The notes beneath the pieces were generated by a model. That model was not told where the DNA came from. It made no database searches and saw only the letters and a program-made list of their open reading frames with translations. Shown in pieces: positions 1 through 26,415 of a DNA stretch of 32,000 bases. How positions within the stretch are numbered: position 1 is the first letter of the stretch; every line of letters starts with the position of its first letter. A program made the translations under genes and the position numbers. Location: assembly GCA_030614005.1 (NCBI GenBank), contig JAUWKS010000034.1, forward strand, positions 2,532 to 34,531. The letters run 5' to 3'. Source of the stretch: Candidatus Heimdallarchaeota archaeon (GTDB lineage: Archaea > Asgardarchaeota > Heimdallarchaeia > JABLTI01).

Positions 1-156
1 AAGGACATTTTAAAAATCTCTCTTGGGTCAGTTTCCAACCATCTTAAGTATCTTAAAGAACACGATCTTATTAGTGTTAGTGGTCACCTAAGGAATTTAA
101 CAAACTTGGGCCGATTAGTTAAAGAAATTTTGGAAATTAAAGAATCTATAAAATAG
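1..156 (+). CDS. C-terminal part of a winged helix-turn-helix (ArsR/MarR-like) DNA-binding protein, 5'-truncated by the window edge
   Basis: Not in the ORF track. Frame 1 is open from base 1 to TAG at 154-156: KDILKISLGSVSNHLKYLKEHDLISVSGHLRNLTNLGRLVKEILEIKESIK. This fits the wHTH pattern recognition helix (S-x-x-S-V-S-x-H-L-K-x-L), wing, then L-T-x-x-G. Confidence 0.75.
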   Translation, partial: KDILKISLGSVSNHLKYLKEHDLISVSGHLRNLTNLGRLVKEILEIKESIK

Positions 157-181: not shown

Positions 182-294
182 ATTTTCAATATTTATTGAA
201 AATATTGGATATTTCAACTAATTTTGCACAAACCATCTTATTTATAAATAATGTTGAAATATATATATTATACTAAATTAATACAATAAGGTGA
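182..294 (+). promoter_or_regulatory. Promoter/operator region of the 7TM-DENN-Arf-longin operon
   Basis: Inverted repeat ATTTTCAATA-TT-TATTGAAAAT (182-203); inverted pair ATATTTCAAC (209-218) / GTTGAAATAT (253-262); TATA-like palindrome TTATTTATAAATAA (238-251); SD-like AGGTGA (289-294) before GTG at 299. Confidence 0.5.
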
Positions 295-298
295 TAAA

Positions 299-1150
299 GT
301 GGTTACAATTGCTGATTGGTTCAATGTTACAATGGATCTAGAATATTCAAGACTTGTAGGATTAATTTCTTATAGTCTTATTCTCGTTGGAACTTTTATC
401 TTTCAATTCACAATAACAAATAAGATAAGAAGCTCAAATGTTAAAAGTGATTCTTATCGGAGCTTTAGGTTGCTATATGTTGCAGTAGCTATTATTGCAG
501 GGACATATGCATCGGATCATTTAGGAGCATTTCTTGGAGGAAATGTTATGCATTCTCAATTCTCGGTTTTTCTATCTATTATTGGATATACAATTGCTAT
601 TTACGCATTAAACTTGTTCCTTCTTAGAATTATCAATTTTAGATCATCGATTAAACGATTTATTCGTGTTCTTACCGTTATCCAAGTAGGTCTTTTGATT
701 TTTGCTAGTATTGTATATTTACTCGCTAGTTTTATTGAAATGCCAGCATTTTTTGTTGACTATACAGTAATGATCTTTGGTGTAACAGTTATATTTGCTA
801 CGATATTTACAATCATCAGTATGCTAACAGAAGCAAGAAAAACAGCAAATAAAATGGTAAAATTGAGATTAAGATTAGCCGCATTAGGAACTTTAGGTAT
901 TTTACTTGAAGGTGCTGCAAATATTCTCCATATTTTACTTGGAACTTTAGGTGCTGATACTACTAATTATTATCAAATAGGTATTCCACTTCTAGCAGTT
1001 CTTTTCTATTCAATATTCATGTTTAGCTATTATTTCTCATTGTTTCCACCAATGTGGTTACAACAAGCAGGTGGAGTATTACCTCCTAGCTTTACTGACT
1101 TGATGAAGAAACAAGAACAATTAAAACAACTCGGGAGTGCAACTAAATGA
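299..1150 (+). CDS. Stand-alone seven-transmembrane protein (predicted N-out/C-in), putative sensor/receptor; HisKA_7TM-like by appearance
   Basis: Seven hydrophobic segments of about 21-25 aa. Basic loops follow TM1, TM3 and TM5 (NKIRSSNVKSDSYRSFR; NFRSSIKRFIR; EARKTANKMVKLRLR); the alternate loops are short and neutral or acidic. No Lys in TM7. Stop overlaps the next start (ATGA, 1147-1150). Confidence 0.75.
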   Translation: MVTIADWFNVTMDLEYSRLVGLISYSLILVGTFIFQFTITNKIRSSNVKSDSYRSFRLLYVAVAIIAGTYASDHLGAFLGGNVMHSQFSVFLSIIGYTIAIYALNLFLLRIINFRSSIKRFIRVLTVIQVGLLIFASIVYLLASFIEMPAFFVDYTVMIFGVTVIFATIFTIISMLTEARKTANKMVKLRLRLAALGTLGILLEGAANILHILLGTLGADTTNYYQIGIPLLAVLFYSIFMFSYYFSLFPPMWLQQAGGVLPPSFTDLMKKQEQLKQLGSATK

Positions 1151-2040
1151 ATGTTACAAATTTCGCAATAATCGAAATTGGAAGAGAAAAAGGTGCTTCC
1201 GCTTTACACGTATCTGGTTTATCAGATAAAATAATGAAGCGCTTACTTATTGAAGCATTGCCACAAGGAAATCCGGAGAATGAATTCTTCAAGATTGTCA
1301 AAATCGAGGATAATCTATTCATCAGCTCACTCATACTTGCTGACAATGAGGACTCTGGTTTAGCTATGATAATAAAATTAGATTCAGCTTTACAAGAAGT
1401 AAATCCAATAGGCTTTATTGATGGTATGAATAAATTATTGAAATCATTTCTAGCAAACAGCGAAAACATCCCTGATGAATTAGATATTTCTTATCTAAAA
1501 ATCGCTTTATCAGAAAATACTTACGAAAATTTTGATACTATTATCTTCTCAATTCTATCTCAACAAAAGACGCTTGTTGTCGGTGAAAAAGACGAGATTT
1601 CGAGTTTTTTCGCTAACCTCTTTGAATTTATTCCCAATAGTTTAAAAGAATATATTACATTAATTGCTAATTCCACGAACCTCTCAAATAATGTCGCTAT
1701 ACACGCATTAATTGTATCTGATGACGTTCTCAAGATAATTGACAACAAGAAAGGAGAATATACCATACTTTTCCTCCCAACAAAGACAGCTTACGGATCA
1801 TTCAGTTCACCATTCTGTAAAAAAGTTGCTCAATTATTTGCCGAACAAAAGAAGGAGAGCATTAAGGAAGAATTAATTCACTTCTTCAAAATATCAATTG
1901 AATCCGAAGAGATCATTCCAATTGCTGATTTCGCTGCAGAACATAAGCTTGCTCTAGCAGATGCCTCACTTCTTCAAAGGATGCGAGCTGGTTACTTTGA
2001 TATCAAAGTCGAAAAAGGATTCTTTGAACAAACAGAGTAG
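1147..2040 (+). CDS. DENN-like protein (uDENN/longin plus cDENN), putative small-GTPase regulator
   Basis: N-terminal FAIIEIGREKG...LLIEALPQG resembles the uDENN start of AVL9/DENND11-type proteins (F-x-x-x-F-D-x-x-x-G...alPxG). The central NFDTIIFSILSQQKTLVVGEKDEISSFFANLFEFIP resembles the cDENN helix-strand-helix-P motif. Lies next to an Arf-like GTPase. Confidence 0.6.
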   Translation: MNVTNFAIIEIGREKGASALHVSGLSDKIMKRLLIEALPQGNPENEFFKIVKIEDNLFISSLILADNEDSGLAMIIKLDSALQEVNPIGFIDGMNKLLKSFLANSENIPDELDISYLKIALSENTYENFDTIIFSILSQQKTLVVGEKDEISSFFANLFEFIPNSLKEYITLIANSTNLSNNVAIHALIVSDDVLKIIDNKKGEYTILFLPTKTAYGSFSSPFCKKVAQLFAEQKKESIKEELIHFFKISIESEEIIPIADFAAEHKLALADASLLQRMRAGYFDIKVEKGFFEQTE

Positions 2041-2048
2041 GTGATATC

Positions 2049-2633
2049 ATGAGTTGGCTTGGACGAATTTTTAAACGGAAAGCAATAGAACAAAAAGCGA
2101 GCCTTGTTATACTTGGATCAAGTGGAGCAGGGAAAACTACTCTGGTCAGATTTCTTGAAACAGGAGAACCTGTTTTAGAGAATCCTCGTACTACACTAGG
2201 AATTGACATTAGGCAATCACCAATTGAAATTAGTGGTTGGTCATTAACTGCAATAGATGTTGGCGGTCAGGAACTCTATCGCGAAAGCTTATGGAGCTTA
2301 GGTGTTTCACAAGCAAGTGCGGTAATCTATGTCCTTGATGGAACTATTAGAAAAACTATCAATAATGATGCTTTTGAGGTATCCAAATTTTCATTTGATT
2401 ATATGTTAACAATTGTTGAAGAAGATGTTCCAATTCTTATTCTAGTCAATAAACAAGATCTTGTAGAGGAAAATCCACTCACTACACAGGAAGCCATTGA
2501 AATGTATGGAATAAGTAATCTCGTTGGACGATCATTCAACATTTTACCAAGTTCTGCAAAATATGGTAATGGTATTGAATTTGCTATAGAGTGGTTGGTT
2601 GATAAGATCGCAGAGAAAAATATTAAGGAGTAA
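2049..2633 (+). CDS. Arf-family (Arf/Arl-related) small GTPase with N-terminal amphipathic helix
   Basis: G1 GSSGAGKTT, G2 TTLG, G3 DVGGQ followed by an Arf-like LW, G4 NKQDL, G5 SSAK, C-terminal GNGIEFAIEWL (compare Arf1 GDGLYEGLDWL). N-terminus MSWLGRIFKRK. SD AGGTGA at 2039-2044. Confidence 0.9.
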   Translation: MSWLGRIFKRKAIEQKASLVILGSSGAGKTTLVRFLETGEPVLENPRTTLGIDIRQSPIEISGWSLTAIDVGGQELYRESLWSLGVSQASAVIYVLDGTIRKTINNDAFEVSKFSFDYMLTIVEEDVPILILVNKQDLVEENPLTTQEAIEMYGISNLVGRSFNILPSSAKYGNGIEFAIEWLVDKIAEKNIKE

Positions 2634-2640
2634 AAATCAC

Positions 2641-3687
2641 ATGGATCCACTAAAGTTCAACGTATACACATCTCTTTCGTCTCTCACAGACGAAGGAATG
2701 ACTATTTTCTATAATCCCAATATTCCTAATATAGATACAGATGATTTAGTAAAAGTAGCAAATTATTACTCAATTATCTTAAACTTCTCTGAGAGCAAAG
2801 GAGCACTATATGGACCACTACCAATCGCTTATCACACAGAATATCTACTTTATATCTATACTTTTGAAACAACAAATCTACAAGTTCAAGATGAAAGAAT
2901 AAAAAGAGACGGTAGTAGAGTTCCTTCATTTCTTCTCATTTTCTTCCCAACAATTGCAGAAAGTTTTACTACAAGAGCAAGAGGACAAATCTCACGTGAG
3001 ATCTCAAATTGGTTAGAACAATTTAAATCGATTCAAGATTTCAAAGATAAGGATGTTAACAAATTAAATTCTCAAATTGAAGCAGCAATATACAAAGAGC
3101 AAAGTATATTTGCACTAGATGAAATCGAAGAAGCTAACGTTGTTCTTGGAAAGAGTGTTGAACTATTACACAACGTCTTAAAATATCAAGAAAAACCTGT
3201 TAAAATACTCCTGTCAGGAACAGATGATCTTTTATTCTCAATTACTCGAAAAGCTATTTTTGGCAATAACTCATCTTTAGTTTCATATTTCAAAAATGAA
3301 AATAACAAAATTGATTTCAAACTTGGAAAAATTGAAGGTACTATTTTACTAGCTTCTGTCAATACACCAAACCTCCACAAATATCTATCAAAAGACTTGG
3401 ATGGCGTTTTACATTTCGGAAACTTCTCAACACCGGAAAGCACTGATGCACATACAGCTGAATTATCTAAAATAATTAAACAAACATCTCAAGATTGCGT
3501 CATTTCATTTGCTATTTGTCAAACAGATAAACCATTAAAAATCAGTGAGACAAAAATACCAGAAGTACTTCAGGAAGGTGTAGGTCGCACAATTTCTTTA
3601 TTAGATATGGGACAACAGAAGAATACAATAAGTACTACGATCATTGAGTTTCTTGAAAAACTAATAGAGTTAATAGGTAAGAAGTAA
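2641..3687 (+). CDS. Longin/uDENN-like N-terminal domain fused to a degenerate (pseudo) small-GTPase domain, 348 aa
   Basis: Real start is probably ATG 2641 (AGGAG at 2626-2630), not 2599. N-half: SLSSLTDEG...LYGPLPI...YIYTF-loop(DER)-SFLLIFFP. C-half keeps the G-domain secondary-structure order with degenerate motifs: KILLSGTDDLLFS, YLSKDLDGVLHFGNFSTPES, VISFAICQTD. Confidence 0.6.
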   Translation: MDPLKFNVYTSLSSLTDEGMTIFYNPNIPNIDTDDLVKVANYYSIILNFSESKGALYGPLPIAYHTEYLLYIYTFETTNLQVQDERIKRDGSRVPSFLLIFFPTIAESFTTRARGQISREISNWLEQFKSIQDFKDKDVNKLNSQIEAAIYKEQSIFALDEIEEANVVLGKSVELLHNVLKYQEKPVKILLSGTDDLLFSITRKAIFGNNSSLVSYFKNENNKIDFKLGKIEGTILLASVNTPNLHKYLSKDLDGVLHFGNFSTPESTDAHTAELSKIIKQTSQDCVISFAICQTDKPLKISETKIPEVLQEGVGRTISLLDMGQQKNTISTTIIEFLEKLIELIGKK

Positions 3688-3750
3688 TTTCTTCTTATCT
3701 TTATTGACTGCTTTTTTTTAATCTAAATTGAAGATGATAATTACTTCATT

Positions 3751-5031
3751 TTATTCTACTAAATTATTCTCAGCAATTAGATTAGTATCTCCATTATTAA
3801 AATCGTTTACTGACTTTCCTACATATCTTACATCTGTTAATAACCAAAGTAAAGCAGTAACAATTAATCCAATAATAATACAACCAAATAAGACATATCG
3901 AATGCTTGTAACTTCTGCGATAATTCCTGAAACTATCATTGATATAGGCATTGCTGCAACGGAAAGTGAAAAAGCAACTGCTTGGAATCTTCCTTGCATC
4001 TCTTTTGGAACAATAGTATGAAACATCGTTTGAGTAATTACATTCACTATTGGCATTGCAAGACCTAAAATTAGTGCTCCTATCCATAACACCCAGAAAT
4101 AACCCCAGGGTGCTATAGCCATTATTGTATAGCCAACAAAACCGACGAGTATGAAAGTTAGTACTATAACCATTTTTTTCTTGATTTTTCTTAGAAAGAG
4201 CATTGCTAATCCTCCTAACAAGATACCTCCATAGTAGAAAGCAAAAACGTAAGCTAACTGAAATGCATCTCCACTATGATCAAATTTTATGTAATAAGGA
4301 GCTTGAGTGTTTACTGGTGTAATTAGAAAATTGAGTGCTGTTGCGAGAAGTAGTAGGCTTAACAACCCTTTTGTGCTTTTAATAAAACTGAAAACTTCCT
4401 TCAATTCAGTTCGATACGATTGACTCTTAACATCCATTTCTTTGGGTTTTGGAAGAGAGATTATTAATAGAGGAATAATTGCGAAGAGAAATGTTCCTAC
4501 ATCTATCCAGAATATTGGATGTGTTGTTGGGATTCTCTCAACAAGAAGAGCTCCTATTAATGGACCAACTAGATTTACTACTCCATTGAAAACAAAATTG
4601 ACTGAATTCATTTGGTTTAAATTCTCTTCTGGAACCATTTGAGGAATGAGCGATCTTACTGCTGGAGTGTGAAATGCTTGGAGTATACCTCGAACTGCTA
4701 AAATAATGAAAACTGACCAGAGTGGAATAGTTGTATATCTAAAAATCAAAATCAAAGCAATGGTGATAACTGCTTGAAGAAAATCAACAACAGCAATTAA
4801 CCACTTCTTATTCCAACGATCTACCCAGACTCCAGCAAAAGGAGCGATAAGCACAAAGAATCCCATACTAAGAAAAGAAGCTAAACCAAGATAGAATTCA
4901 CTTTCATATTCTATTGTTACCCACCAAATAATGGAAAACGTCACAATTGCTGAGCCGAGTAATGAAATAATTTGTCCTGTCCAGAATAACAAAAAACTAA
5001 GATAGCTTTTTTTTGATGCTTCAAAAGTCAA
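3751..5031 (-). CDS. MFS transporter, DHA3/MefA-like efflux family
   Basis: About 12 TM segments; FWTGQIISLLGS start; motif-A-like AGVWVDRWNKK; QTMFHTIVPKEMQGR in the C-half. Confidence 0.9.
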   Translation of the reverse strand: MTFEASKKSYLSFLLFWTGQIISLLGSAIVTFSIIWWVTIEYESEFYLGLASFLSMGFFVLIAPFAGVWVDRWNKKWLIAVVDFLQAVITIALILIFRYTTIPLWSVFIILAVRGILQAFHTPAVRSLIPQMVPEENLNQMNSVNFVFNGVVNLVGPLIGALLVERIPTTHPIFWIDVGTFLFAIIPLLIISLPKPKEMDVKSQSYRTELKEVFSFIKSTKGLLSLLLLATALNFLITPVNTQAPYYIKFDHSGDAFQLAYVFAFYYGGILLGGLAMLFLRKIKKKMVIVLTFILVGFVGYTIMAIAPWGYFWVLWIGALILGLAMPIVNVITQTMFHTIVPKEMQGRFQAVAFSLSVAAMPISMIVSGIIAEVTSIRYVLFGCIIIGLIVTALLWLLTDVRYVGKSVNDFNNGDTNLIAENNLVE

Positions 5032-6065
5032 AGTTTTTTCCTCAATAAAACAAATTCTCTACCTGGTTTGCCACCAAATCGTTTTGCTAATAATTGTGGT
5101 GGAAGATTTGTCTTCATAATAATGGAACCTTCAACATATTGATAATTCTTTTTTAGTAGATTTTCCATTAGCACACTGCTCATTGCAGAGGCAATATTTT
5201 TTTTATGGCTACTCGGTAATGTTCCTATAGATATTATTCTCGCCCTGTCTATTTTTCCTTCTTTTACTTTCTGATAATAATCTGGTGCACAAATTATAAA
5301 CCCAATTGGTTCTCCACTATCTGTTTCCGCAATAATTACTAATTCATCATCCATTAGAGGCAAGAATGCTTTTACGTAAGCTGTATTTTCTTCCAGCGTT
5401 CGGGGAATATAGTCATATCTTTTTCCGAAAATTTTGTTCGTTAGGTAATGATAAATAGCTATTTCTTTCTCAAGGTTTGCTCTGTCAAAAGTGCGTATTT
5501 TCACTCCAGCTACTTCATATTTCTTCTCAAGATAGGTTTCTCGAGTATAAATAATAGATGTGATATTTAGATAGACTTTGAAACCATATTTCTTAAGATA
5601 TTTAAAATAATAATCAGGATTGTGCGATGTTAAGAGTGTGTGAGGTTTATCGAACCCATTAACCAGTAATCCAAAATATCGATTATCTAGTTTTGGTAAA
5701 ATAATCTCTTTTACGTTTTCAATTCGAAAAATTTCAGCACAATAATCAAGAATTGATTTTAAAGATACGAATTCTCCTTCTAGAACTTCAATATAACATA
5801 TCCAACCAATCTTGTTGTTTTTCTTGTCTTTTGCTTTTGGGTGTAAAATAGCCACTGCTCGAGCTAAAGGTTTATCATTTTCATTTAATGCAATTATTGG
5901 CCAGGTTCGAATCTCAGTTTTATTTGTCGAAAAATTAAATTGTTTCTTTATTTCTTCTGGATTCTCAGGAAACCATATTGGATCGTTTTTATAAATTTCA
6001 GAAGGGAGATTGAAGAAGTAATTTATATTTTCATCTTCAAGATTTTTAATTTCAACTATTTTCAT
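5028..6065 (-). CDS. Tandem-GNAT acyltransferase, YghO / bacterial ceramide synthase-like family
   Basis: Family-typical segments FNLPSEIYKNDPIW, GLLVNGFD, HNPDYY..LKKYGF, IIAETDSGEPIGFIICAPDY, IISIGTLP, VEGSIIMKTN...KRFGG. Stop overlaps the MFS start (ATGA). Confidence 0.75.
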   Translation of the reverse strand: MKIVEIKNLEDENINYFFNLPSEIYKNDPIWFPENPEEIKKQFNFSTNKTEIRTWPIIALNENDKPLARAVAILHPKAKDKKNNKIGWICYIEVLEGEFVSLKSILDYCAEIFRIENVKEIILPKLDNRYFGLLVNGFDKPHTLLTSHNPDYYFKYLKKYGFKVYLNITSIIYTRETYLEKKYEVAGVKIRTFDRANLEKEIAIYHYLTNKIFGKRYDYIPRTLEENTAYVKAFLPLMDDELVIIAETDSGEPIGFIICAPDYYQKVKEGKIDRARIISIGTLPSSHKKNIASAMSSVLMENLLKKNYQYVEGSIIMKTNLPPQLLAKRFGGKPGREFVLLRKKL

Positions 6066-7386
6066 TTTGGAACCTTCTAATTACTCGTATCAATTTCTTG
6101 GATCTAGGATTTCTCTCAGGTTTCTCCGTTGAGAATTCAACATTCCCTAGTTCAGCATTTAATTTCTCAACCCAGAAATTTAGATTCTCAATGATTTTCT
6201 TTTCAATAGCCTCTCTGTTCTTTTCACTCTTCAAGACGATTCTAATTTCTATTTTATCCATTGCTTTCTGGATTGCTTGATATTCTTCTATTTCCTGAGA
6301 AGCTTGATTTATCGACCTTCTCACATAATCTGGAAAAAGATAGCTTATTTCTCCATTACTGTTTTGCAGATGGAAGATATCATCAGAGCGCCCGTGAATT
6401 TTTTCAATAACTCTAAAACAAGAACCACAGTTGCATTTTGCTTCTTGCAACTCAATGATGTCATTCATCTCATAACGGATAATTGGTTGGGTTGTTCGGT
6501 ATAGATCTGTAATGAGCAAATTTTTTGCATTCCCTATTTTATCACCTACATCTAACGTTTCAATGAGTAAAACATCTTCATTTAGATGTAAGCTACCACA
6601 TCTACAAGTTGAAGCAATAAAACCCTCAGCACCTTGATAAATTTCTACGATAGGTACTTCATAAATTTCTTCCAACTTCTCTCGAGTAGCTTTTGATAGT
6701 ACTTCTGCATAAGAAATAACTGCCTTAATAGGATGGTCAATTTGATCCTTCTTACCGCTAATGATTACTAATAAAGATGGGGGACCAGAAAGAATGTTTA
6801 ATTTCTTGGAGTTGATGAGTTTAATTATTTCTTCAACAGATAAAGTATAATCAATGTAAACTAAATGAATGCCAAAATTACTTATTTCATTAAAAGTAGG
6901 GTTATTTCTACGAAGAGCAAAAAGAATTCTTCTATTTTTAACTGATTTTGGAATACCATTTCTAGAGAACAATAAACAATTGTACAAATCGCTTTCATTT
7001 TGAGAAAGAACGGTGAGAGCTTTATTCCCAGAAGTGCCTGAAGAAAGTCCTATAGAATATTCTCCTTGAAACCTTGAGTATTGTCCTTTCTTTTCTTGAG
7101 CAATTGTGTAAGCAACTAAATCTTCTTTCCGTAAATTTCTAGTATTGATCAAATCGAAATTGTCCATCATTTCACTTTTAGTCATTATTGGTATTTGTTC
7201 AAGTGAGATTTCATCCGAACCGGAAAAAAGATTAGCATAATATTCAGAATTCTTTCGACTAAATTCGATTATTTTTTTCAATTGTTTTTTTTGATGTGCT
7301 TCTAGTTTCTCTCTATTCCATTTGTAGAATTGTTGTTGCAGTTTTCGTATATTGAATAATTTCTGAATAATGTTCATTTTAGACAT
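6052..7386 (-). CDS. Adenylate-forming ligase, phenylacetate-CoA ligase (PaaK)/F390-synthetase-like
   Basis: ANL motifs LSSGTSGNK, EIYQGAEG, PIIRYEMND, IHGRSDD. Probable start ATG 7386 (the track extends to TTG 7419, inside the upstream gene). Confidence 0.85.
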   Translation of the reverse strand: MSKMNIIQKLFNIRKLQQQFYKWNREKLEAHQKKQLKKIIEFSRKNSEYYANLFSGSDEISLEQIPIMTKSEMMDNFDLINTRNLRKEDLVAYTIAQEKKGQYSRFQGEYSIGLSSGTSGNKALTVLSQNESDLYNCLLFSRNGIPKSVKNRRILFALRRNNPTFNEISNFGIHLVYIDYTLSVEEIIKLINSKKLNILSGPPSLLVIISGKKDQIDHPIKAVISYAEVLSKATREKLEEIYEVPIVEIYQGAEGFIASTCRCGSLHLNEDVLLIETLDVGDKIGNAKNLLITDLYRTTQPIIRYEMNDIIELQEAKCNCGSCFRVIEKIHGRSDDIFHLQNSNGEISYLFPDYVRRSINQASQEIEEYQAIQKAMDKIEIRIVLKSEKNREAIEKKIIENLNFWVEKLNAELGNVEFSTEKPERNPRSKKLIRVIRRFQNENS

Positions 7387-7405
7387 CACACATTTTCTGT
7401 TATGG

Positions 7406-14944: not shown

Positions 14945-17900
14945 ATGCTAGGAGCTTGCGTTTTGGAATTAGTTCATTCAGTTTGGAATAAAGATAATTT
15001 CTACATTTGGGTTGAAACATTTGACTCACTTTTCGAAAGAAAAAATTTTCAAACTGAAAAACGAATAATTGCTAATTCAACAAAACTTCCCTCTGCTAGA
15101 AGTATTAACCAAATATTGAAGTTATTACGAATAGCCGGTTTGGAGGATATTTCTAACAGTTCTGTAAAAGCAAGTACAATCGATATTAACCTTCCCAATA
15201 CTAACTGTGAAGTGGAAGCTCTTGCTATTCCCCCTTTTGAGATAATGGATTTCTTATTACAGCCGTTAGAAAATAAAACGGAATATTTCTCTTTAAGTAG
15301 TTCCACAAAATTTTGGTTGGAGCTAGCTAAATTCGTTTTAGAGATTATTGCTAAAGAAAAATTTCTACCTTATATTCATATTGAAAAAAGAAATACTACT
15401 GAAACCATTTTTCTTGGTAAGTGGAAAGCGATATTAGATTTGAAAGTTGAGTCAAAATTAGTGCAATTTTCACAAGAATTAATTGATAATAACTTTGATG
15501 ATTCTCTAGACTTTCTAGCAGCAAGAGATTTAATTCTATCGTTCATCAATACTTTACTCGATTCTTTTATCAGAAATAAGCTTGGTGTCTTTCTTCCGAA
15601 ATACAAGAATAACATTGATATCCAAACTTCTGAAATTGCTCGAGATTGGTTTCAATCTCTTTTTGATTCTGAAAAGGAAGCGATAGTTTATTCCACAAAT
15701 GAATTTGATGTTTTCTTAGGCACGTTAAATGCTTGGTTAAATAATGCTCTTCCACGAAAAAATGCTAACCCTTTTCGATTGTGTTTGAAATTAACTCCAC
15801 CAAGCGAAGATGTGGTTGGTGCAGATGAATCCATTTGGAAACTCGAATACTATCTACAGGCACAGAATGATCCTAGCTTAATCATACCTGCTCAAGATAT
15901 TTGGAATAGTAAAACTGGAACGATAGCTTTTCTCGAGACAAGGTTTGAGAACCCCCAAGAGAGACTACTAATCGATTTAGGTAAAGTCTCGAGGGTCTAT
16001 CCGAAGATTGAGGAAAGCTTACAGAAAGCGTTTCCAGCAGAACTCTTCATTGAAAAGGACGAAGCTTTTGAATTTCTGGAAAATTACTCAAAAATATTGG
16101 AAGACCAAGGTTTTGTTGTGCTATTACCTGCGTGGTGGAAAAATCCTCCTAAAGATGTTGATCTCTTATTAAAGATAAAACCTAGTTGCGAAGGTGCTGC
16201 AAAAACAACAACAGGCATTTTTCGGTTAAACTCTTTCTTGAATTTTGAGTGGGAAATAGCCATAAATGGTACACAACTATCTATTGAAGAATTTGAGAAA
16301 TTAGCTGAACTTCGAGTGCCTTTCGTTAGAATACGTGGTCAATGGATAAAAATGGATCAAGAACGGATTAATCAAATGTTGGATTTAATCAAAAACAAGT
16401 ACAAAAGAAAGACAATCTCCTCTGTTGAAGCTTTACTGCTAGCAATAATGGAAGACTCCGAAGAAGATTCACTATTTGATTTATCAATGGATGAAATACC
16501 TGCATTTCGAAACTTTACTAAGAGAATCGGTGCTTCAAGTAAAATAGAATTACTGCCTACTCCAACGAATTTTCAAGGGGAATTGCGTCCTTATCAAATT
16601 GAAGGCTTTTCATGGATGAATTTTCTCCAAGATTATAGTTTTGGTGTTTGTCTAGCTGATGATATGGGTCTAGGAAAAACAATTCAATTAATTGCTTTAT
16701 TATTACGAACAAAAAATCAAATGACAACGCCATTGAATCCTTCTCTATTAATTTGCCCAACATCTATAATTGGAAACTGGTTACGAGAAATTAACCGATT
16801 CGCTCCTACACTAAATGCATTAATTTATCATGGCCCAGAGAGACCAAACAGCGAAGAATTTGAAGGAATACTCGAGACATATGATATTGTTATTACAACT
16901 TACAATTTAGCACAACGTGATTTTTCAACACTTAATAAAATAGAATGGTATAATATTATTCTTGATGAAGCACAGAACATAAAGAATCCTCATGCAAAAC
17001 AAACACGTGCTATTAAAAAACTAGAAAGCAAGTATAAAATTGCCCTTACTGGGACACCGATTGAAAATCGTCTATCTGAATTATGGTCAATTATTGATTT
17101 CCTTAATCCCGGATATCTCAGCTCTTTGAATGCTTTTAACGAAAATTACATTCAACCAATTGAGAAAAATTTTGACAAAAATAAAATCAAACACCTTTCA
17201 AAAATAATTCAACCGTTTATTCTGAGGCGATTGAAATCTGATAAATCAATAATTAATGATTTACCAGAGAAGATGGAATACAATGTCTTTTGTTCACTTA
17301 CAGAAGAGCAAGCAATTCTTTATGAAGCAGTCATTAAAGATCTCTTTGAACAACTAAATACTGCCCAAGGAATTCAAAGAAAAGGACTAGTATTAGCTAC
17401 GATTACTAAATTGAAGCAAATTTGTAATCATCCCGCACAGTTCATGCACGAAGGATCAAAGAAATTAGACAACAGATCATGCAAATTTGAGCGATTAGAG
17501 GAAATGCTTGAAGAAGTTCTGTCAAATAATGAAAAAGCGTTAATTTTCACCCAGTACAAAGAACTTGGTAAAATGCTGCAGATTTATCTCGAGAACAAAT
17601 TTGGTATAGAACCATTATTTCTATCAGGAGATACTTCACAGAAGAATCGTGAGAAAATGATTCAAGCATTCCAAAACGAAGACAATCTTGAAAGTCCAAA
17701 ATTGTTTATTTTATCAATCAAAGCAGGAGGAGTTGGTTTAAACTTAACAAGTGCAAATCACGTTTTTCATATAGATCGATGGTGGAATCCAGCAGTTGAA
17801 AATCAGGCAACAGATAGAGTATTTAGAATTGGTCAAAAGAAGAACGTAATGGTTCACAAATTTGTTTGTATAGGTACACTAGAAGAAAGCATTGACCATT

Positions 17901-18016
17901 TGATCAAGCAGAAAATTGGTCTAGCAAATGCGGTTATTTCTTCCGGAGGGTCATTTATGACTGAGCTATCCTTAGACGACCTAAGGAATGTTCTAAGTTT
18001 AAGAACAATACATTGA
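14945..18016 (+). CDS. SNF2/SWI2-family helicase-like ATPase (long N-terminal region, SNF2_N, Helicase_C)
   Basis: LRPYQIEG, LADDMGLGKT (Walker A), ILDEAQNIKN (Walker B), ALTGTPIENRLSELWS, LIFTQY, SIKAGGVGLNLTSAN, DRWWNPAVENQATDRVFRIGQ. Confidence 0.95.
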   Translation: MLGACVLELVHSVWNKDNFYIWVETFDSLFERKNFQTEKRIIANSTKLPSARSINQILKLLRIAGLEDISNSSVKASTIDINLPNTNCEVEALAIPPFEIMDFLLQPLENKTEYFSLSSSTKFWLELAKFVLEIIAKEKFLPYIHIEKRNTTETIFLGKWKAILDLKVESKLVQFSQELIDNNFDDSLDFLAARDLILSFINTLLDSFIRNKLGVFLPKYKNNIDIQTSEIARDWFQSLFDSEKEAIVYSTNEFDVFLGTLNAWLNNALPRKNANPFRLCLKLTPPSEDVVGADESIWKLEYYLQAQNDPSLIIPAQDIWNSKTGTIAFLETRFENPQERLLIDLGKVSRVYPKIEESLQKAFPAELFIEKDEAFEFLENYSKILEDQGFVVLLPAWWKNPPKDVDLLLKIKPSCEGAAKTTTGIFRLNSFLNFEWEIAINGTQLSIEEFEKLAELRVPFVRIRGQWIKMDQERINQMLDLIKNKYKRKTISSVEALLLAIMEDSEEDSLFDLSMDEIPAFRNFTKRIGASSKIELLPTPTNFQGELRPYQIEGFSWMNFLQDYSFGVCLADDMGLGKTIQLIALLLRTKNQMTTPLNPSLLICPTSIIGNWLREINRFAPTLNALIYHGPERPNSEEFEGILETYDIVITTYNLAQRDFSTLNKIEWYNIILDEAQNIKNPHAKQTRAIKKLESKYKIALTGTPIENRLSELWSIIDFLNPGYLSSLNAFNENYIQPIEKNFDKNKIKHLSKIIQPFILRRLKSDKSIINDLPEKMEYNVFCSLTEEQAILYEAVIKDLFEQLNTAQGIQRKGLVLATITKLKQICNHPAQFMHEGSKKLDNRSCKFERLEEMLEEVLSNNEKALIFTQYKELGKMLQIYLENKFGIEPLFLSGDTSQKNREKMIQAFQNEDNLESPKLFILSIKAGGVGLNLTSANHVFHIDRWWNPAVENQATDRVFRIGQKKNVMVHKFVCIGTLEESIDHLIKQKIGLANAVISSGGSFMTELSLDDLRNVLSLRTIH

Positions 18017-23670: not shown

Positions 23671-26415
23671 TTATCTTGTAGCTATTTTCTTCTTCCGAAC
23701 TAGTAAGGTAATAACTACTACGAGGATAATTCCTACTAATCCACCACCGATTATGACATAAGCCCACCAAGGTAAGCTAATACCAGATGTATCGATTTGA
23801 ATGTCAACTGTATCGCTCCAATCGCTAGCGAGATCATAATCATCTACAGCCCGTACTCGGAAGTAATACGTGCCATCCGTCAAATCTGTAACATTGTGCG
23901 ATAAACCTGTTACAATGAAGGTGTCAATAGGTGTAGCAAAATTTGTTTCATTAGCTACTTGTAACTCATAGTGATCGATACCAACATCATCTGTGCTAGT
24001 ATTCCAAGTTACTTCTACATTGCTGACTTCAATTAAAACACCAGGGTCATTAAGTAGAGGTGCAGTTGGTTGTTCATTGAAGAAATAATCAATAGATACT
24101 GCATATAAATGCACACTGCGATCTTCTGGACCTGCTATCACAGCTTTCCAGCGAAGGTCATTGCCTGGATTTGCGAAAACGTGTTCTAATCCTGGAGTGA
24201 CTACTTCCCAATTTGTGCCACCATCAGCAGACATAGAGAATTCAACTGCTGTTAATGTTGGGACATTGCCAACAAAGTCTAATGTTGCTCTGTAAATAAT
24301 ATCTTCTGTATTGTCAACCTCGAGGGATTGAGCTTCAGAGGTCCCAAGAACATAGGTGTCAGCAGCACTTTCAAAATGCCGAAGAATTACTAGGCTAGTT
24401 CTATTAGCTACATAAGTAAAATCACCACTTGTAGAAATTTGAGTAGCTAAGGTAGCATTTGGGCAATTACCTATTTTTTGGATGTCAGTAATGTCTGAAG
24501 TGTTGATCATAGTGACACCACTATTGTGATCAGCAACAAGCATGTAAGGACCAAAACCCCAAACACCAGATGGTTTGCTAGAAGTTGAAATATAATCACC
24601 AAAACCAGTGCTTGTTGGATCTGTTACATCCCAATGTTCGTAATATCCTAATTGATCTACTAAGAATAATGAATCACCATCTACATAGACATCGTAATGG
24701 TCAACATTTATTAAATCCCATTTATAGATTTCAACAGGAGTACTGATGTCGGTTATATCGTAGATTGCTAAACCAACATTAGCACCAGTCTTACCAACTA
24801 TATAGAGAAGAGGACCTTGAATCCATAATGCTGTAACGTTGGATGTGACAGTGAAAGAGCTATAAGGAGAAGGAATAACATATGGATTTGATATATTGTA
24901 AATGTAAACTCCTAGAGTCCCATCAGCTATAAATGCATAGTCACCAGAAACCATAACATCAGTTGCTTGACCAAGAACTCTGAAATTGGTTTGGAAAATA
25001 TTGGCAGGATCACTGATATCGTAAATTCGAAAAGCATTGCCGTAATCAGCAATATACGCGAAATTTCCTCGAACATCAAGCTTACGATAGAAAGGAGTCA
25101 CTCCTATAATGTCATTATCAAGTAAAATTGGATTGTTTGGATCTCTGACATTGAGAGTAATTAATCCATCACGTCCTCCAGCAATATAGGCTATATCACC
25201 AATGACTTTTACATCCCAAACTTCGTGATCATCATAAACATTGGAATAAAATGAATCATAATTTTTCAAAAATCCCACTTTATATGTGTAAATTCCATCA
25301 TTCGTAGCAATAACTAGATTTTCTCCATAGAGATCAACATCATAGGCATAAGGAATTGACGCAATTTCTGTAACAAACGCAATGTGGTTTGGATCAAATG
25401 TATCAAATACTTGTACACCACCATTACCATCAGCAACAAAGAGTGTTCTTCCTTGCTTGACCAGCCTTTGAGCATGACCGGGAGTATCATAAGTGCTGAT
25501 AATTGTTGGATTTGTTGGATCTCTTATATCGATAACATGAACTCCTGCTGAACCATCAGCTAAGTAAGCTAATCCTCCATCAACTATTACATCTGTAGCA
25601 TTACCAGGAGTATTAACATAACCTATTTCTACTGGTGAAAATTTGTTTGTAATATTTAACACATAAAATCCTTCAGTGCTGGCGGCAATATACGCAGAAT
25701 GCCCAACAATATCAAGACCTAATGAGAGATTGCACTCCCAGTTACATTTAGCTGGAAATGTTTCAAATCCTGCTGGATCTTCATCATATAATACTCTTAA
25801 CGAAGTATTATCCGCAACATTATATGATGTATAATAGATATATGCTCCTAAGGTCTCAATATCAGTTACGTAGTTATCCATTCCAAACCCAATTACCCAA
25901 TGAGGATTAGAAGGATCCTGTACATCATAAGCAATAATTCCATAATCTATTGATGCATCATCATATTGTCCTGCCCATAGTGCATCACCTTCAACAGCAA
26001 TTGCCTTAGTTTCATACCATGCAGAACTTTCCCCTAACAGACTAATGTCAGATGGATTACTTATTTCTACTATTGCGATTTGAGTAGAAGTACTACTATT
26101 ATACATTCCTAGATAAGCTTTCATACCCTGAACTTCTACATCAACAACTGGTGAAGAAGTATAGTAGTGATCCAAAAATTCCAAGGAAAAATTACGATTA
26201 TTCGTTACTATTCCTGTCCCCCAACCAAAAGCGCTAGATGCTCCATCTAGATAGGTTGTGGTCGTAAAATCTTCAACATATGAATCAGTACTTTGCGCAG
26301 TTAAATTTAAGTCATTATTATTCATTCCATTAAATGATGGAACGAAAAAAGTTGTTAATGAAAATAAACCTACTAACAACAAAGTAGCTATAAATTTCTT
26401 TTTAATTGAAACCAT
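23671..26415 (-). CDS. LVIVD-repeat cell-surface protein with a C-terminal FN3/Ig-like domain and membrane anchor
   Basis: Signal peptide; many LVIVD-type repeats (e.g. AYLADGSAGVHVIDIRDPTNP); YYFRVRAVD FN3-like end; TM followed by RKKK. Confidence 0.88.
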   Translation of the reverse strand: MVSIKKKFIATLLLVGLFSLTTFFVPSFNGMNNNDLNLTAQSTDSYVEDFTTTTYLDGASSAFGWGTGIVTNNRNFSLEFLDHYYTSSPVVDVEVQGMKAYLGMYNSSTSTQIAIVEISNPSDISLLGESSAWYETKAIAVEGDALWAGQYDDASIDYGIIAYDVQDPSNPHWVIGFGMDNYVTDIETLGAYIYYTSYNVADNTSLRVLYDEDPAGFETFPAKCNWECNLSLGLDIVGHSAYIAASTEGFYVLNITNKFSPVEIGYVNTPGNATDVIVDGGLAYLADGSAGVHVIDIRDPTNPTIISTYDTPGHAQRLVKQGRTLFVADGNGGVQVFDTFDPNHIAFVTEIASIPYAYDVDLYGENLVIATNDGIYTYKVGFLKNYDSFYSNVYDDHEVWDVKVIGDIAYIAGGRDGLITLNVRDPNNPILLDNDIIGVTPFYRKLDVRGNFAYIADYGNAFRIYDISDPANIFQTNFRVLGQATDVMVSGDYAFIADGTLGVYIYNISNPYVIPSPYSSFTVTSNVTALWIQGPLLYIVGKTGANVGLAIYDITDISTPVEIYKWDLINVDHYDVYVDGDSLFLVDQLGYYEHWDVTDPTSTGFGDYISTSSKPSGVWGFGPYMLVADHNSGVTMINTSDITDIQKIGNCPNATLATQISTSGDFTYVANRTSLVILRHFESAADTYVLGTSEAQSLEVDNTEDIIYRATLDFVGNVPTLTAVEFSMSADGGTNWEVVTPGLEHVFANPGNDLRWKAVIAGPEDRSVHLYAVSIDYFFNEQPTAPLLNDPGVLIEVSNVEVTWNTSTDDVGIDHYELQVANETNFATPIDTFIVTGLSHNVTDLTDGTYYFRVRAVDDYDLASDWSDTVDIQIDTSGISLPWWAYVIIGGGLVGIILVVVITLLVRKKKIATR

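Follow-up and report, generated by a model that had tools for sequence, protein, structure and literature searches.

Here we report a conserved gene module from a Candidatus Heimdallarchaeota archaeon, in which an Arf-family GTPase is encoded together with a predicted seven-transmembrane (7TM) protein and two different longin-containing proteins. It lies at the left end of a 32,000-nucleotide stretch of DNA, hereafter the window (GenBank assembly GCA_030614005.1, contig JAUWKS010000034.1; G000:C119:2532-34531 in our numbering). The arrangement is not due to chance, as these gene families are found side by side again and again in many genomes: the module is real and conserved, its gene order is shuffled, and its distribution is patchy. 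In the most likely reading, which we put at somewhat better than an even chance, it is a conserved set of Heimdallarchaeial genes that encodes a membrane-associated Arf switch together with regulators for that switch. The core genes, in window coordinates, are these:

299..1150, + strand: gene 1 (P0001), GTG start, 283 amino acids (aa); stand-alone 7TM membrane protein, predicted N-out/C-in
1147..2040, + strand: gene 2 (P0002), 297 aa; compact longin+DENN module protein
2049..2633, + strand: gene 3, 'ArfB' (P0003), 194 aa; ArfR-type small GTPase
2641..3687, + strand: gene 4 (P0004), 348 aa; longin domain (~3-155), long helix (136-180) and Arf-derived pseudo-GTPase domain (~171-347)
2890..2898, + strand: codons D84-E85-R86 of gene 4; D-x-R in the longin beta4-beta5 loop, candidate arginine finger

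An earlier note on this DNA, made from the letters alone, had described these four same-strand open reading frames, and its coordinates are exact throughout, including an ATGA overlap of genes 1 and 2 at 1147-1150 and gaps of 8 nucleotides (nt) between genes 2 and 3 (2041-2048) and 7 nt between genes 3 and 4 (2634-2640). The Shine-Dalgarno motifs that it placed before 299, 2049 and 2641 are present at all three starts as GGTGA or GGAG (290-294, 2040-2044 and 2625-2628, respectively). Gene 4 is taken to start at ATG 2641 and not at the upstream TTG 2599, because its homologues are 348-349 aa long. What does not hold is the note's description of the operon as self-contained, for the locus here comprises six genes, with a second Arf paralogue and a CARF/Csa3-type regulator gene upstream. 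The paralogue, ArfA (P0070; C119:1311-1889), lies 2.7 kb upstream on the same strand, and its product is 72% identical to that of gene 3. The sequencing runs that contain DNA of this locus are cold-seep and marine-sediment metagenomes, and there is no RNA run among those listed as containing it.

Linkage across genomes was followed by running our own family hidden Markov models over fetched loci (designated by L numbers; TM denotes the 7TM family and LGP the gene 4-type family). The six-gene order ArfA, Csa3-like regulator, 7TM, DENN, ArfB, gene 4 is found in L001, L002 and L017. Variants of it occur in L005, which lacks ArfB, and in L006, where the 7TM-DENN pair is duplicated in tandem (L006:4180-7256), both pairs keeping the 4-nt overlap and the second DENN copy being shortened to 176 aa. 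The same families appear elsewhere as DENN-TM-Arf-LGP (L008), Arf-DENN-TM-LGP (L019, from another class of the phylum), DENN-TM-LGP-Arf (L021) and LGP-Arf-DENN-TM-Arf (L022), and in partial orders without LGP as Arf-DENN-TM (L020) and DENN-TM-Arf (L010). Every module case has the DENN gene adjoining the 7TM gene, the two overlapping by 4 nt or lying no more than 7 nt apart. Loci L020-L022 were chosen only as distant relatives of the 7TM protein, and in all three informative ones (3/3) the 7TM gene falls among DENN, LGP and Arf genes. In a further family, f4 (L011-L013), the gene after an Arf-DENN pair encodes a protein of 269-279 aa that has 6-7 TM segments. The gene-neighbourhood survey that the earlier note had proposed as a check on co-occurrence in other Asgard genomes therefore comes out in its favour, with the four families linked in multiple loci. 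It is true that the module is missing from most genomes of the phylum, as might be expected of genes that are neighbours without a shared function; with four families found together in at least six orders, a co-duplicated TM-DENN pair and translational coupling that is kept, such a coincidence is scarcely credible.

Two of these loci have further genes of note a few kb downstream of the module: a UvrD+PDDEXK helicase with an AAA_15/AAA_21 ATPase (L005:9475-13056) and a Polbeta/HepT toxin-antitoxin-type pair (L006:9454-10295).

The identities that the earlier note gave to the four products also stand. The Arf GTPase is recognized by its Pfam score and by Asgard ArfR structures as its best relatives, the DENN-like protein by its fold in Foldseek and VIA-align comparisons, the longin/pseudo-GTPase by a longin fold joined to a degenerate small-GTPase fold, and the 7TM protein by hydropathy and a positive-inside pattern.

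The GTPase is the most readily classified of the four. Gene 3 matches Pfam Arf at 2.4e-23 (82.9 bits against a 22.3-bit cut-off), and ArfA likewise lies above this cut-off at 78.9 bits. The closest solved relatives of gene 3 are the Asgard ArfRs 8oun (2.1e-19) and 8oul (5.5e-19), followed by 8ouk and 8oum, and by these sequence matches gene 3 is an Arf-family GTPase of the ArfR type. The G1 motif (GxxxxGK[ST]), the switch I Thr, G3 DxGGQ, G4 NKxD and G5 SAK are intact in every cluster Arf aligned, and gene 3 keeps the catalytic Gln of DVGGQ (Q74 of Arf). A conserved N-terminal MSWLxRIFxxK extension is seen in the alignment of the cluster Arfs. Among close relatives ArfA and ArfB form separate sub-clades, and the duplication is therefore older than the divergence of these relatives. 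In the locus that has no ArfB (L005:2837-3376), the remaining ArfA is also without the N-terminal MSWLxRIF extension.

Gene 2 has homologues in about 30 clusters, and all the named ones come from Heimdallarchaeota or Asgard metagenome-assembled genomes. It has no Pfam or NCBIfam match at E<=1, the DENN, uDENN, Folliculin and C9orf72 families included, and its alignment profile (A1) finds nothing among Protein Data Bank (PDB) sequences at E<=10, so that the likeness described here is structural only. AlphaFold2 models of genes 2 and 4 were built from alignments of their homologues, and that of gene 2 (pLDDT 89, pTM 0.85) gives Foldseek matches to complete DENN modules, namely DENND1B (3e-7), C9orf72 (9.3e-7) and FNIP2 (7.3e-6). 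Its structural matches include the DENND1 entries 3tw8 and 6ekk. When compared by domain with VIA-align, residues 1-118 give longin matches and residues ~85-297 match the DENN parts of SMCR8 and FLCN. The top match in the AlphaFold database (AFDB) is a 'Folliculin/SMCR8 longin domain-containing protein', an entry that is also among the matches of gene 4; bacterial 'GTPase-associated protein 1 N-terminal domain' proteins are among the AFDB matches of gene 2 as well. On the strength of its model, which matches solved DENN modules over its full length, gene 2 is classed as a DENN module. Two of its residues, R13 and G16, are invariant and candidates for a functional role, and R13, three residues before G16, is kept in 12/12 divergent members. 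The beta4-beta5 loop contains no Arg in gene 2.

Gene 4 likewise has homologues in about 30 clusters, the named ones all from Heimdallarchaeota or Asgard metagenome-assembled genomes, and it belongs to no Pfam or NCBIfam family. In its AlphaFold2 model (pLDDT 87) the longin domain has structural matches to Lst4, C9orf72, FLCN and FNIP2, and the C-terminal domain to the G domains of Arf, Sar and Rab proteins, the two being linked by the helix at 136-180. The G domain is degenerate throughout the family, with no GK[S/T], no DxxG and S/C-Q-T-x in place of NKxD; because it has a small-GTPase fold without nucleotide-binding motifs, we regard it as a pseudo-GTPase. Against PDB sequences the gene 4 profile (A2) gives a weak in-register match to Arf1 (E 0.2), the rest being at chance level, and a homologue search with the longin domain alone recovered the same family only, with no annotated relatives. 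Within the longin domain, D84 and R86 are present in 30/30 sequences of A2 and kept in 8/8 divergent family members. They lie in the loop between model strands 68-78 and 93-103 (beta4-beta5), where, as we take it, the arginine fingers of NPRL2 and FLCN also sit. One longin protein with a loop Arg (gene 4) is thus paired at this locus with a longin+DENN protein without one (gene 2).

Other Heimdall genera contain a widespread paralogue family of gene 4, 353-355 aa in length (L024:2313-4061, L025:2656-4302 and L028:2714-4426), which matches its longin and coiled-coil part at ~1e-28 to 1e-32. These paralogues are always found directly 3' of a small 3-4-TM gene and opposite three multi-TM genes. 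Gene 4-like paralogues taken more broadly in other Heimdall genera (353-394 aa) have no Pfam match and no Arf neighbour, and were of no help in classification.

Gene 1 has seven hydrophobic segments with clean positive-inside alternation, which by hydropathy alone predicts an N-out/C-in topology, the counts of K+R in successive loops being 0-1, 5, 0, many, 0, 6, 0 and 4. Its family is small: of 1.84 billion proteins clustered at 50%, it accounts for 88 representatives, nearly all of 270-300 aa and with no fused domain, and no Pfam or NCBIfam match reached significance for 11 members. Atlas gives a single lead for gene 1, HisKA_7TM (0.86), which is present in 10% of one cluster, and there is a weak NCBIfam match to the putative transporter family MAB_1171c (E 0.0053, far under its cut-off). 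The near-invariant residues of the family alignment (A4) are E178, K185, R190 and P251, and these, together with its two best-conserved motifs, 'ANKMxKLRL' in the TM5-TM6 loop (E178/K185/R190) and 'LFPPxWLQ..GVLPPSF' in the tail after TM7, fall in segments predicted to be cytoplasmic. The external loops are short, at ~13-18 residues, and no residues in the helical core or on the outer face are conserved across the family alignment. As judged from sequence, the conserved cytoplasmic segments suit a docking surface for a soluble partner, and there is no sign of a conserved ligand pocket. The ligand sensing that the earlier note had attributed to this protein is therefore unsupported, the external loops being short and the most conserved residues being those predicted to face the cytoplasm.

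The same genome has three further operons that consist of a ~170-aa protein, an Arf and a 6-8-TM protein of 271-338 aa (C18:12464-14480, C26:37893-39851 and C74:24051-25933). Their genes overlap or are separated by 1-nt gaps, and the ~170-aa proteins share an N-terminal 'QMGxKGLE' hairpin motif. The TM proteins of these operons are related to one another and form a second family; common ancestry with gene 1 is not supported (hhalign probability <10%). Kinship between the gene 1 family and the multi-TM neighbours in f4 is likewise weakly supported (hhalign probability 27%, E 7e-4).

A true ligand-activated receptor, which in the manner of a G-protein-coupled receptor (GPCR) turns on the DENN protein as an exchange factor for Arf while gene 4 ends the signal, is an unlikely candidate for gene 1. 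The predicted N-out/C-in 7TM topology would suit it. GPCRs couple to G proteins through their TM5-TM6 loop and C-tail regions, and these are, by analogy only, the regions conserved here. DENND1, which gene 2 matches in 3tw8 and 6ekk, is an exchange factor for guanine nucleotides (GEF), the bacterial conservon/AGPS operons of sensor, GTPase, GTPase-activating protein (GAP) and GEF are a prokaryotic precedent, and the same genome has the three additional Arf-7TM operons. These points are to be set against the absence of detected homology to any receptor family, the short external loops, and a core and outer face without conserved residues, only P251, E178, K185 and R190 being near-invariant. Moreover, GEF activity cannot be read from a DENN fold, because DENN-fold proteins also serve as GAP subunits, as in C9orf72-SMCR8 and FLCN-FNIP. 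The relationship could also run the other way, with gene 1 as the target, that is, a transporter, channel or lipid-handling protein under Arf control, and the DENN and longin proteins regulating the switch. In eukaryotes, membrane proteins and lipid enzymes are under the control of Arf and Arl proteins, and both the weak MAB_1171c match and the stand-alone form of the 7TM protein, which lacks an output domain, would agree with such a role. No transporter family is matched at significance, however, and the constant neighbour of the 7TM gene is the DENN gene rather than Arf, which makes this version distinctly unlikely.

Several elements around the core genes bear on how the module may be expressed:

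1..156, + strand: 3' end of the gene for a Csa3/CARF-type winged helix-turn-helix (wHTH) regulator; the full gene is G000:C119:1998-2687 (P0071, 229 aa), with its start outside the window
183..202, no strand: perfect palindrome TTTTCAATATTTATTGAAAA (TTTTCAATA-TT-TATTGAAAA), candidate operator of the Csa3-like regulator
238..251, + strand: TATA-box-like TTATTTATAAATAA, ~48 nt 5' of the GTG start; putative promoter element
3712..3719, + strand: T8 tract, 25 nt past the stop of gene 4; candidate archaeal terminator signal, common to the convergent major facilitator superfamily (MFS) gene

The palindrome and the T8 tract correspond to the palindrome and poly-T flanks that the earlier note had reported, and T-rich runs lie 3' of gene 4 in 6/6 orthologous loci. 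The 229-aa protein encoded upstream matches PADLOC CARF3 at 2.7e-8 (residues 29-221) and Csa3 at 5.9e-7. By Atlas features it scores 0.92 to Csa3_N+HTH clusters, its ten best clusters all being Csa3_N with HTH, and it has a weak Pfam HTH_20 match (1.1e-4, under cut-off). By these matches it is a regulator of the Csa3/CARF type, with a predicted CARF-type N-domain and C-terminal wHTH. The palindrome occurs once in the window where 0.18 occurrences are expected, and 16/100 shuffles reach one; the window has a G+C content of 29-39%, at which AT-rich palindromes come cheaply, and the count alone is not significant. The site at 183-202 is nevertheless meaningful because it is kept at all six orthologous loci: a TTT(T)CA-N-TGAAA(A) inverted repeat lies 5' of the 7TM gene in 6/6 regulator-bearing loci and is absent from regulator-less ones. 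A second palindrome, TTTTCA-N8-TGAAAA, is located between ArfA and the regulator gene (C119:1928-1947), and the genome has 39 strict sites, two of them at this locus, against 14 for a reversed-pattern control. In the orthologous spacers, TTTATAAA- or TTTTTAAA-like elements lie 35-45 nt downstream of the palindrome. The six genes probably form two transcription units, ArfA-regulator and 7TM-DENN-ArfB-gene 4, and the second would then be controlled through an operator to which the Csa3-like protein binds. The regulator is found only with the six-gene form, the core module being without it in L008, L010 and L019-L022.

Membership of the regulator in the CARF/Csa3 family raises the thought of a GTPase-centred conflict or defence system, in which it would link the locus to a cyclic-nucleotide alarm, with the longin/DENN proteins as counterparts of bacterial 'GTPase-associated protein 1' and the 7TM protein as an effector that damages membranes. 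In addition to the regulator itself, the gene 2 matches to the bacterial proteins of that name, the patchy distribution, which includes a decayed copy and one locus from another class, and the defence-like neighbours at L006 (HepT/Polbeta) and L005 (UvrD+PDDEXK, AAA_15/21) fit this idea. We hold it to be very doubtful, since the four core proteins belong to no PADLOC family (the 7TM and DENN proteins have no matches, the Arfs give P-loop noise and gene 4 matches JetC at E 0.034), the cluster has no nuclease, protease or NADase effector, and the regulator is confined to the six-gene form while the core module exists without it. No CRISPR array is present in the window, and no cas-like domains were found among its large open reading frames, the remaining genome not having been searched for cas genes. 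Eukaryote-like genes of Asgard archaea are, furthermore, typically patchy in their distribution (Liu et al., 10.1101/2020.10.19.343400).

Under the reading that we favour, that of a membrane-associated Arf switch and the regulators that belong to it, the DENN protein would dock on the TM5-TM6 loop and C-terminal tail of the 7TM protein, which would serve as a membrane platform. The nucleotide state of Arf would be set by the two longin proteins, each acting on its own or both joined in a longin-longin pair as in FLCN-FNIP or C9orf72-SMCR8, with R86 of gene 4 supplied for GTP hydrolysis and the DENN module of gene 2 serving as a non-catalytic partner or as an exchange factor. In this genus the module has gained the second Arf paralogue and the Csa3/CARF-type wHTH regulator, which probably binds the palindrome before the 7TM promoter and the second copy before its own gene. 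Both the heterodimer of genes 2 and 4 and its effect on the Arf cycle are putative; a complex prediction for gene 2, gene 4 and Arf, in which Arf was scored, gave 0.00 in two runs without controls and speaks neither for nor against them.

A number of observations weigh against this reading. We infer every interaction in it; folds, motifs and linkage are what the analysis establishes. The candidate equivalence of R86 with the known arginine fingers (R147, R164 and R78) is by secondary-structure register in the model, not by superposition. The position of the glycine-proline (GP) motif is occupied in gene 4 by G19-M20 (G in 30/30, M in 29/30) and in gene 2 by G16-A17, GP being found in 1/26 A1 sequences and in L009 and L010. 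In gene 4 a pseudo-GTPase takes the place of the C-terminal DENN domain of SMCR8 and FLCN, and at sequence level no link was found from the module to a eukaryotic DENN or longin family. Nor does the hydrophobic moment at the N-terminus of Arf exceed that of shuffled sequences, of which 17% and 43% reach it. As to distribution, the DENN family occurs in 16/399 genomes of the phylum, all of one class, and full-length relatives of gene 4 in fewer; some DENN homologues (L009 and L016) have no Arf or 7TM neighbour; and in one complete genome (L018; G016:C1:739840-741400) what is left is a decayed remnant of the module. This remnant consists of a 108-aa Arf fragment and a gene 4 homologue with N-terminal stop codons, with no DENN or 7TM gene near.

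A more far-reaching proposal, which we judge unlikely, is that the locus encodes a working pathway from a 7TM receptor to Arf, with a longin/DENN pair truly homologous to the C9orf72-SMCR8 and FLCN-FNIP GAP complexes. In that case the locus would represent an archaeal precursor to the membrane-anchored longin-DENN control of Arf and Rag GTPases, the 7TM protein having the role later taken by lysosomal scaffolds or receptors.

The remainder of the window and its left flank hold genes of other kinds. A four-gene block on the - strand (3751-8824) is convergent on the module and consists of two MFS transporters flanking two Pfam-less proteins of 345 and 455 aa. Farther along, on the + strand (12128-18016), a subtilase (Peptidase_S8), a caspase-domain protein (Peptidase_C14) and a 1023-aa SNF2-family helicase with DUF3670 are encoded consecutively. 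There are also two LVIVD-repeat-type surface proteins, one in the window (23671-26415, - strand) and one upstream (G000:C119:2-1033), the latter with a Pro/Thr-rich linker and a C-terminal TM anchor.

ArfRs are known to bind membranes, and the searchable literature names no regulators or effectors for them; this locus supplies candidates. Because the module pairs a specific ArfR with defined partners, namely a protein of DENN fold, a longin protein that bears the invariant Arg, and a dedicated membrane protein, each of a size that allows expression, and because point mutants are at hand in R86 of gene 4, R13 of gene 2 and Q74 of Arf, the question of what regulates Arf in Archaea, and where, becomes directly testable. 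If the longin pair acts as a GAP, longin/DENN regulation of Arf would be older than eukaryotes. Furthermore, Arf genes in this one genome are recurrently coupled to 7TM genes of two unrelated families, which suggests that small GTPases and polytopic membrane proteins are linked more generally in Asgard archaea, in a way that has not been studied.

The nearest eukaryotic systems are the longin-domain GAP complexes: C9orf72-SMCR8(-WDR41), which acts on ARF1 (7mge), FLCN-FNIP2 (6nzd and 8dhb), and NPRL2-NPRL3 of GATOR1. As in these complexes, two different longin-containing proteins are encoded here with an Arf-family GTPase, and the longin+DENN architecture of gene 2 is like that of C9orf72, FNIP and FLCN, with structural matches to support it. 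The invariant loop Arg found only in gene 4 parallels the asymmetry of SMCR8/C9orf72 and FLCN/FNIP, in which one subunit is catalytic and the other is not. In contrast to SMCR8 and FLCN, gene 4 has its pseudo-GTPase instead of DENN, and the GP motif is incomplete in both genes 2 and 4. At 297 and 348 aa the proteins are also much smaller, nothing like WDR41 or Ragulator accompanies them, the membrane role would fall to the 7TM protein, and no sequence-level homology to the eukaryotic complexes was detected; heterodimer and GAP activity are putative here. The resemblance to a C9orf72-SMCR8-ARF module proposed in the earlier note finds support in the longin/DENN folds and in an invariant candidate arginine finger, and fails for the DENN domain that gene 4 lacks and the full GP motif.

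Among Asgard systems, Liu et al. (10.1101/2020.10.19.343400) described DENN proteins, FLCN-like longin+DENN proteins in Heimdall lineages, and an operon of a LAMTOR1-like roadblock protein, a Rab-like GTPase and a DENN protein. Our locus resembles that operon in placing an Asgard small GTPase beside a DENN-fold protein that is read as a GTPase regulator, and differs from it in having an Arf-type GTPase, no roadblock/LAMTOR1 gene, and a 7TM protein and a longin-pseudo-GTPase as conserved partners. A 2025 study in Traffic (PMC12290439), which used 15 Asgard longins, reported Heimdallarchaeial GAP longins of the FLCN/SMCR8 type with an Arg finger, proposed a GP motif at the start of beta2 as their signature, and asked whether ArfR or Rag GTPases are their partners. 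Gene 4 is like these longins in its Heimdallarchaeial origin and in an invariant Arg at the corresponding loop, differing in its G-M, and the gene context here points to ArfR as the partner. The Asgard ArfRs themselves are represented by HodArfR1 (8ouk and 8oul) and GerdArfR1 (8oum and 8oun) (Vargova et al., 10.1101/2024.02.28.582541; Zhu et al., PMC11914678). They require the N-terminal helix in order to bind membranes, and the ArfR preprint (10.1101/2024.02.28.582541) does not use the term GEF; the ArfR/AArf papers (10.1101/2024.02.28.582541; PMC11914678) contain no gene-neighbourhood analysis and name no regulators. Gene 3 and ArfA are like these GTPases in their intact switch motifs and conserved N-terminal extension, and the locus adds candidate regulators.

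The nearest prokaryotic precedent for a membrane protein encoded with a GTPase and its regulators is the actinobacterial conservon/AGPS (CvnA-D; PMC13621833 and PMC13343842), an operon of a membrane sensor, a small Ras-superfamily GTPase, a roadblock putative GAP and a putative GEF. Its parts are unrelated to those described here, being a histidine-kinase-like sensor, an MglA-type GTPase and an MglB roadblock protein from bacteria, as opposed to a 7TM protein, an Arf-type GTPase and longin/DENN proteins from Asgard archaea. The upstream regulator is like the Csa3/CARF-wHTH regulators of CRISPR loci in its near-full-length profile match, its C-terminal wHTH and the palindrome before both the operon and its own gene; unlike theirs, its surroundings in the window hold neither cas genes nor a CRISPR array, and its ligand and DNA binding are putative. 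The earlier note's idea of a prokaryotic receptor-to-GTPase circuit is therefore anticipated in outline by conservon/AGPS and by the Asgard GTPase-DENN operon of Liu et al., while the present architecture is undescribed, as that note had supposed: no paper found in the searchable literature describes a set of 7TM, DENN, Arf and longin-pseudo-GTPase genes. That Asgard GTPases are encoded with longin/DENN regulators, and that prokaryotes have operons of sensor, GTPase and regulators, was already known; this combination of genes is new.

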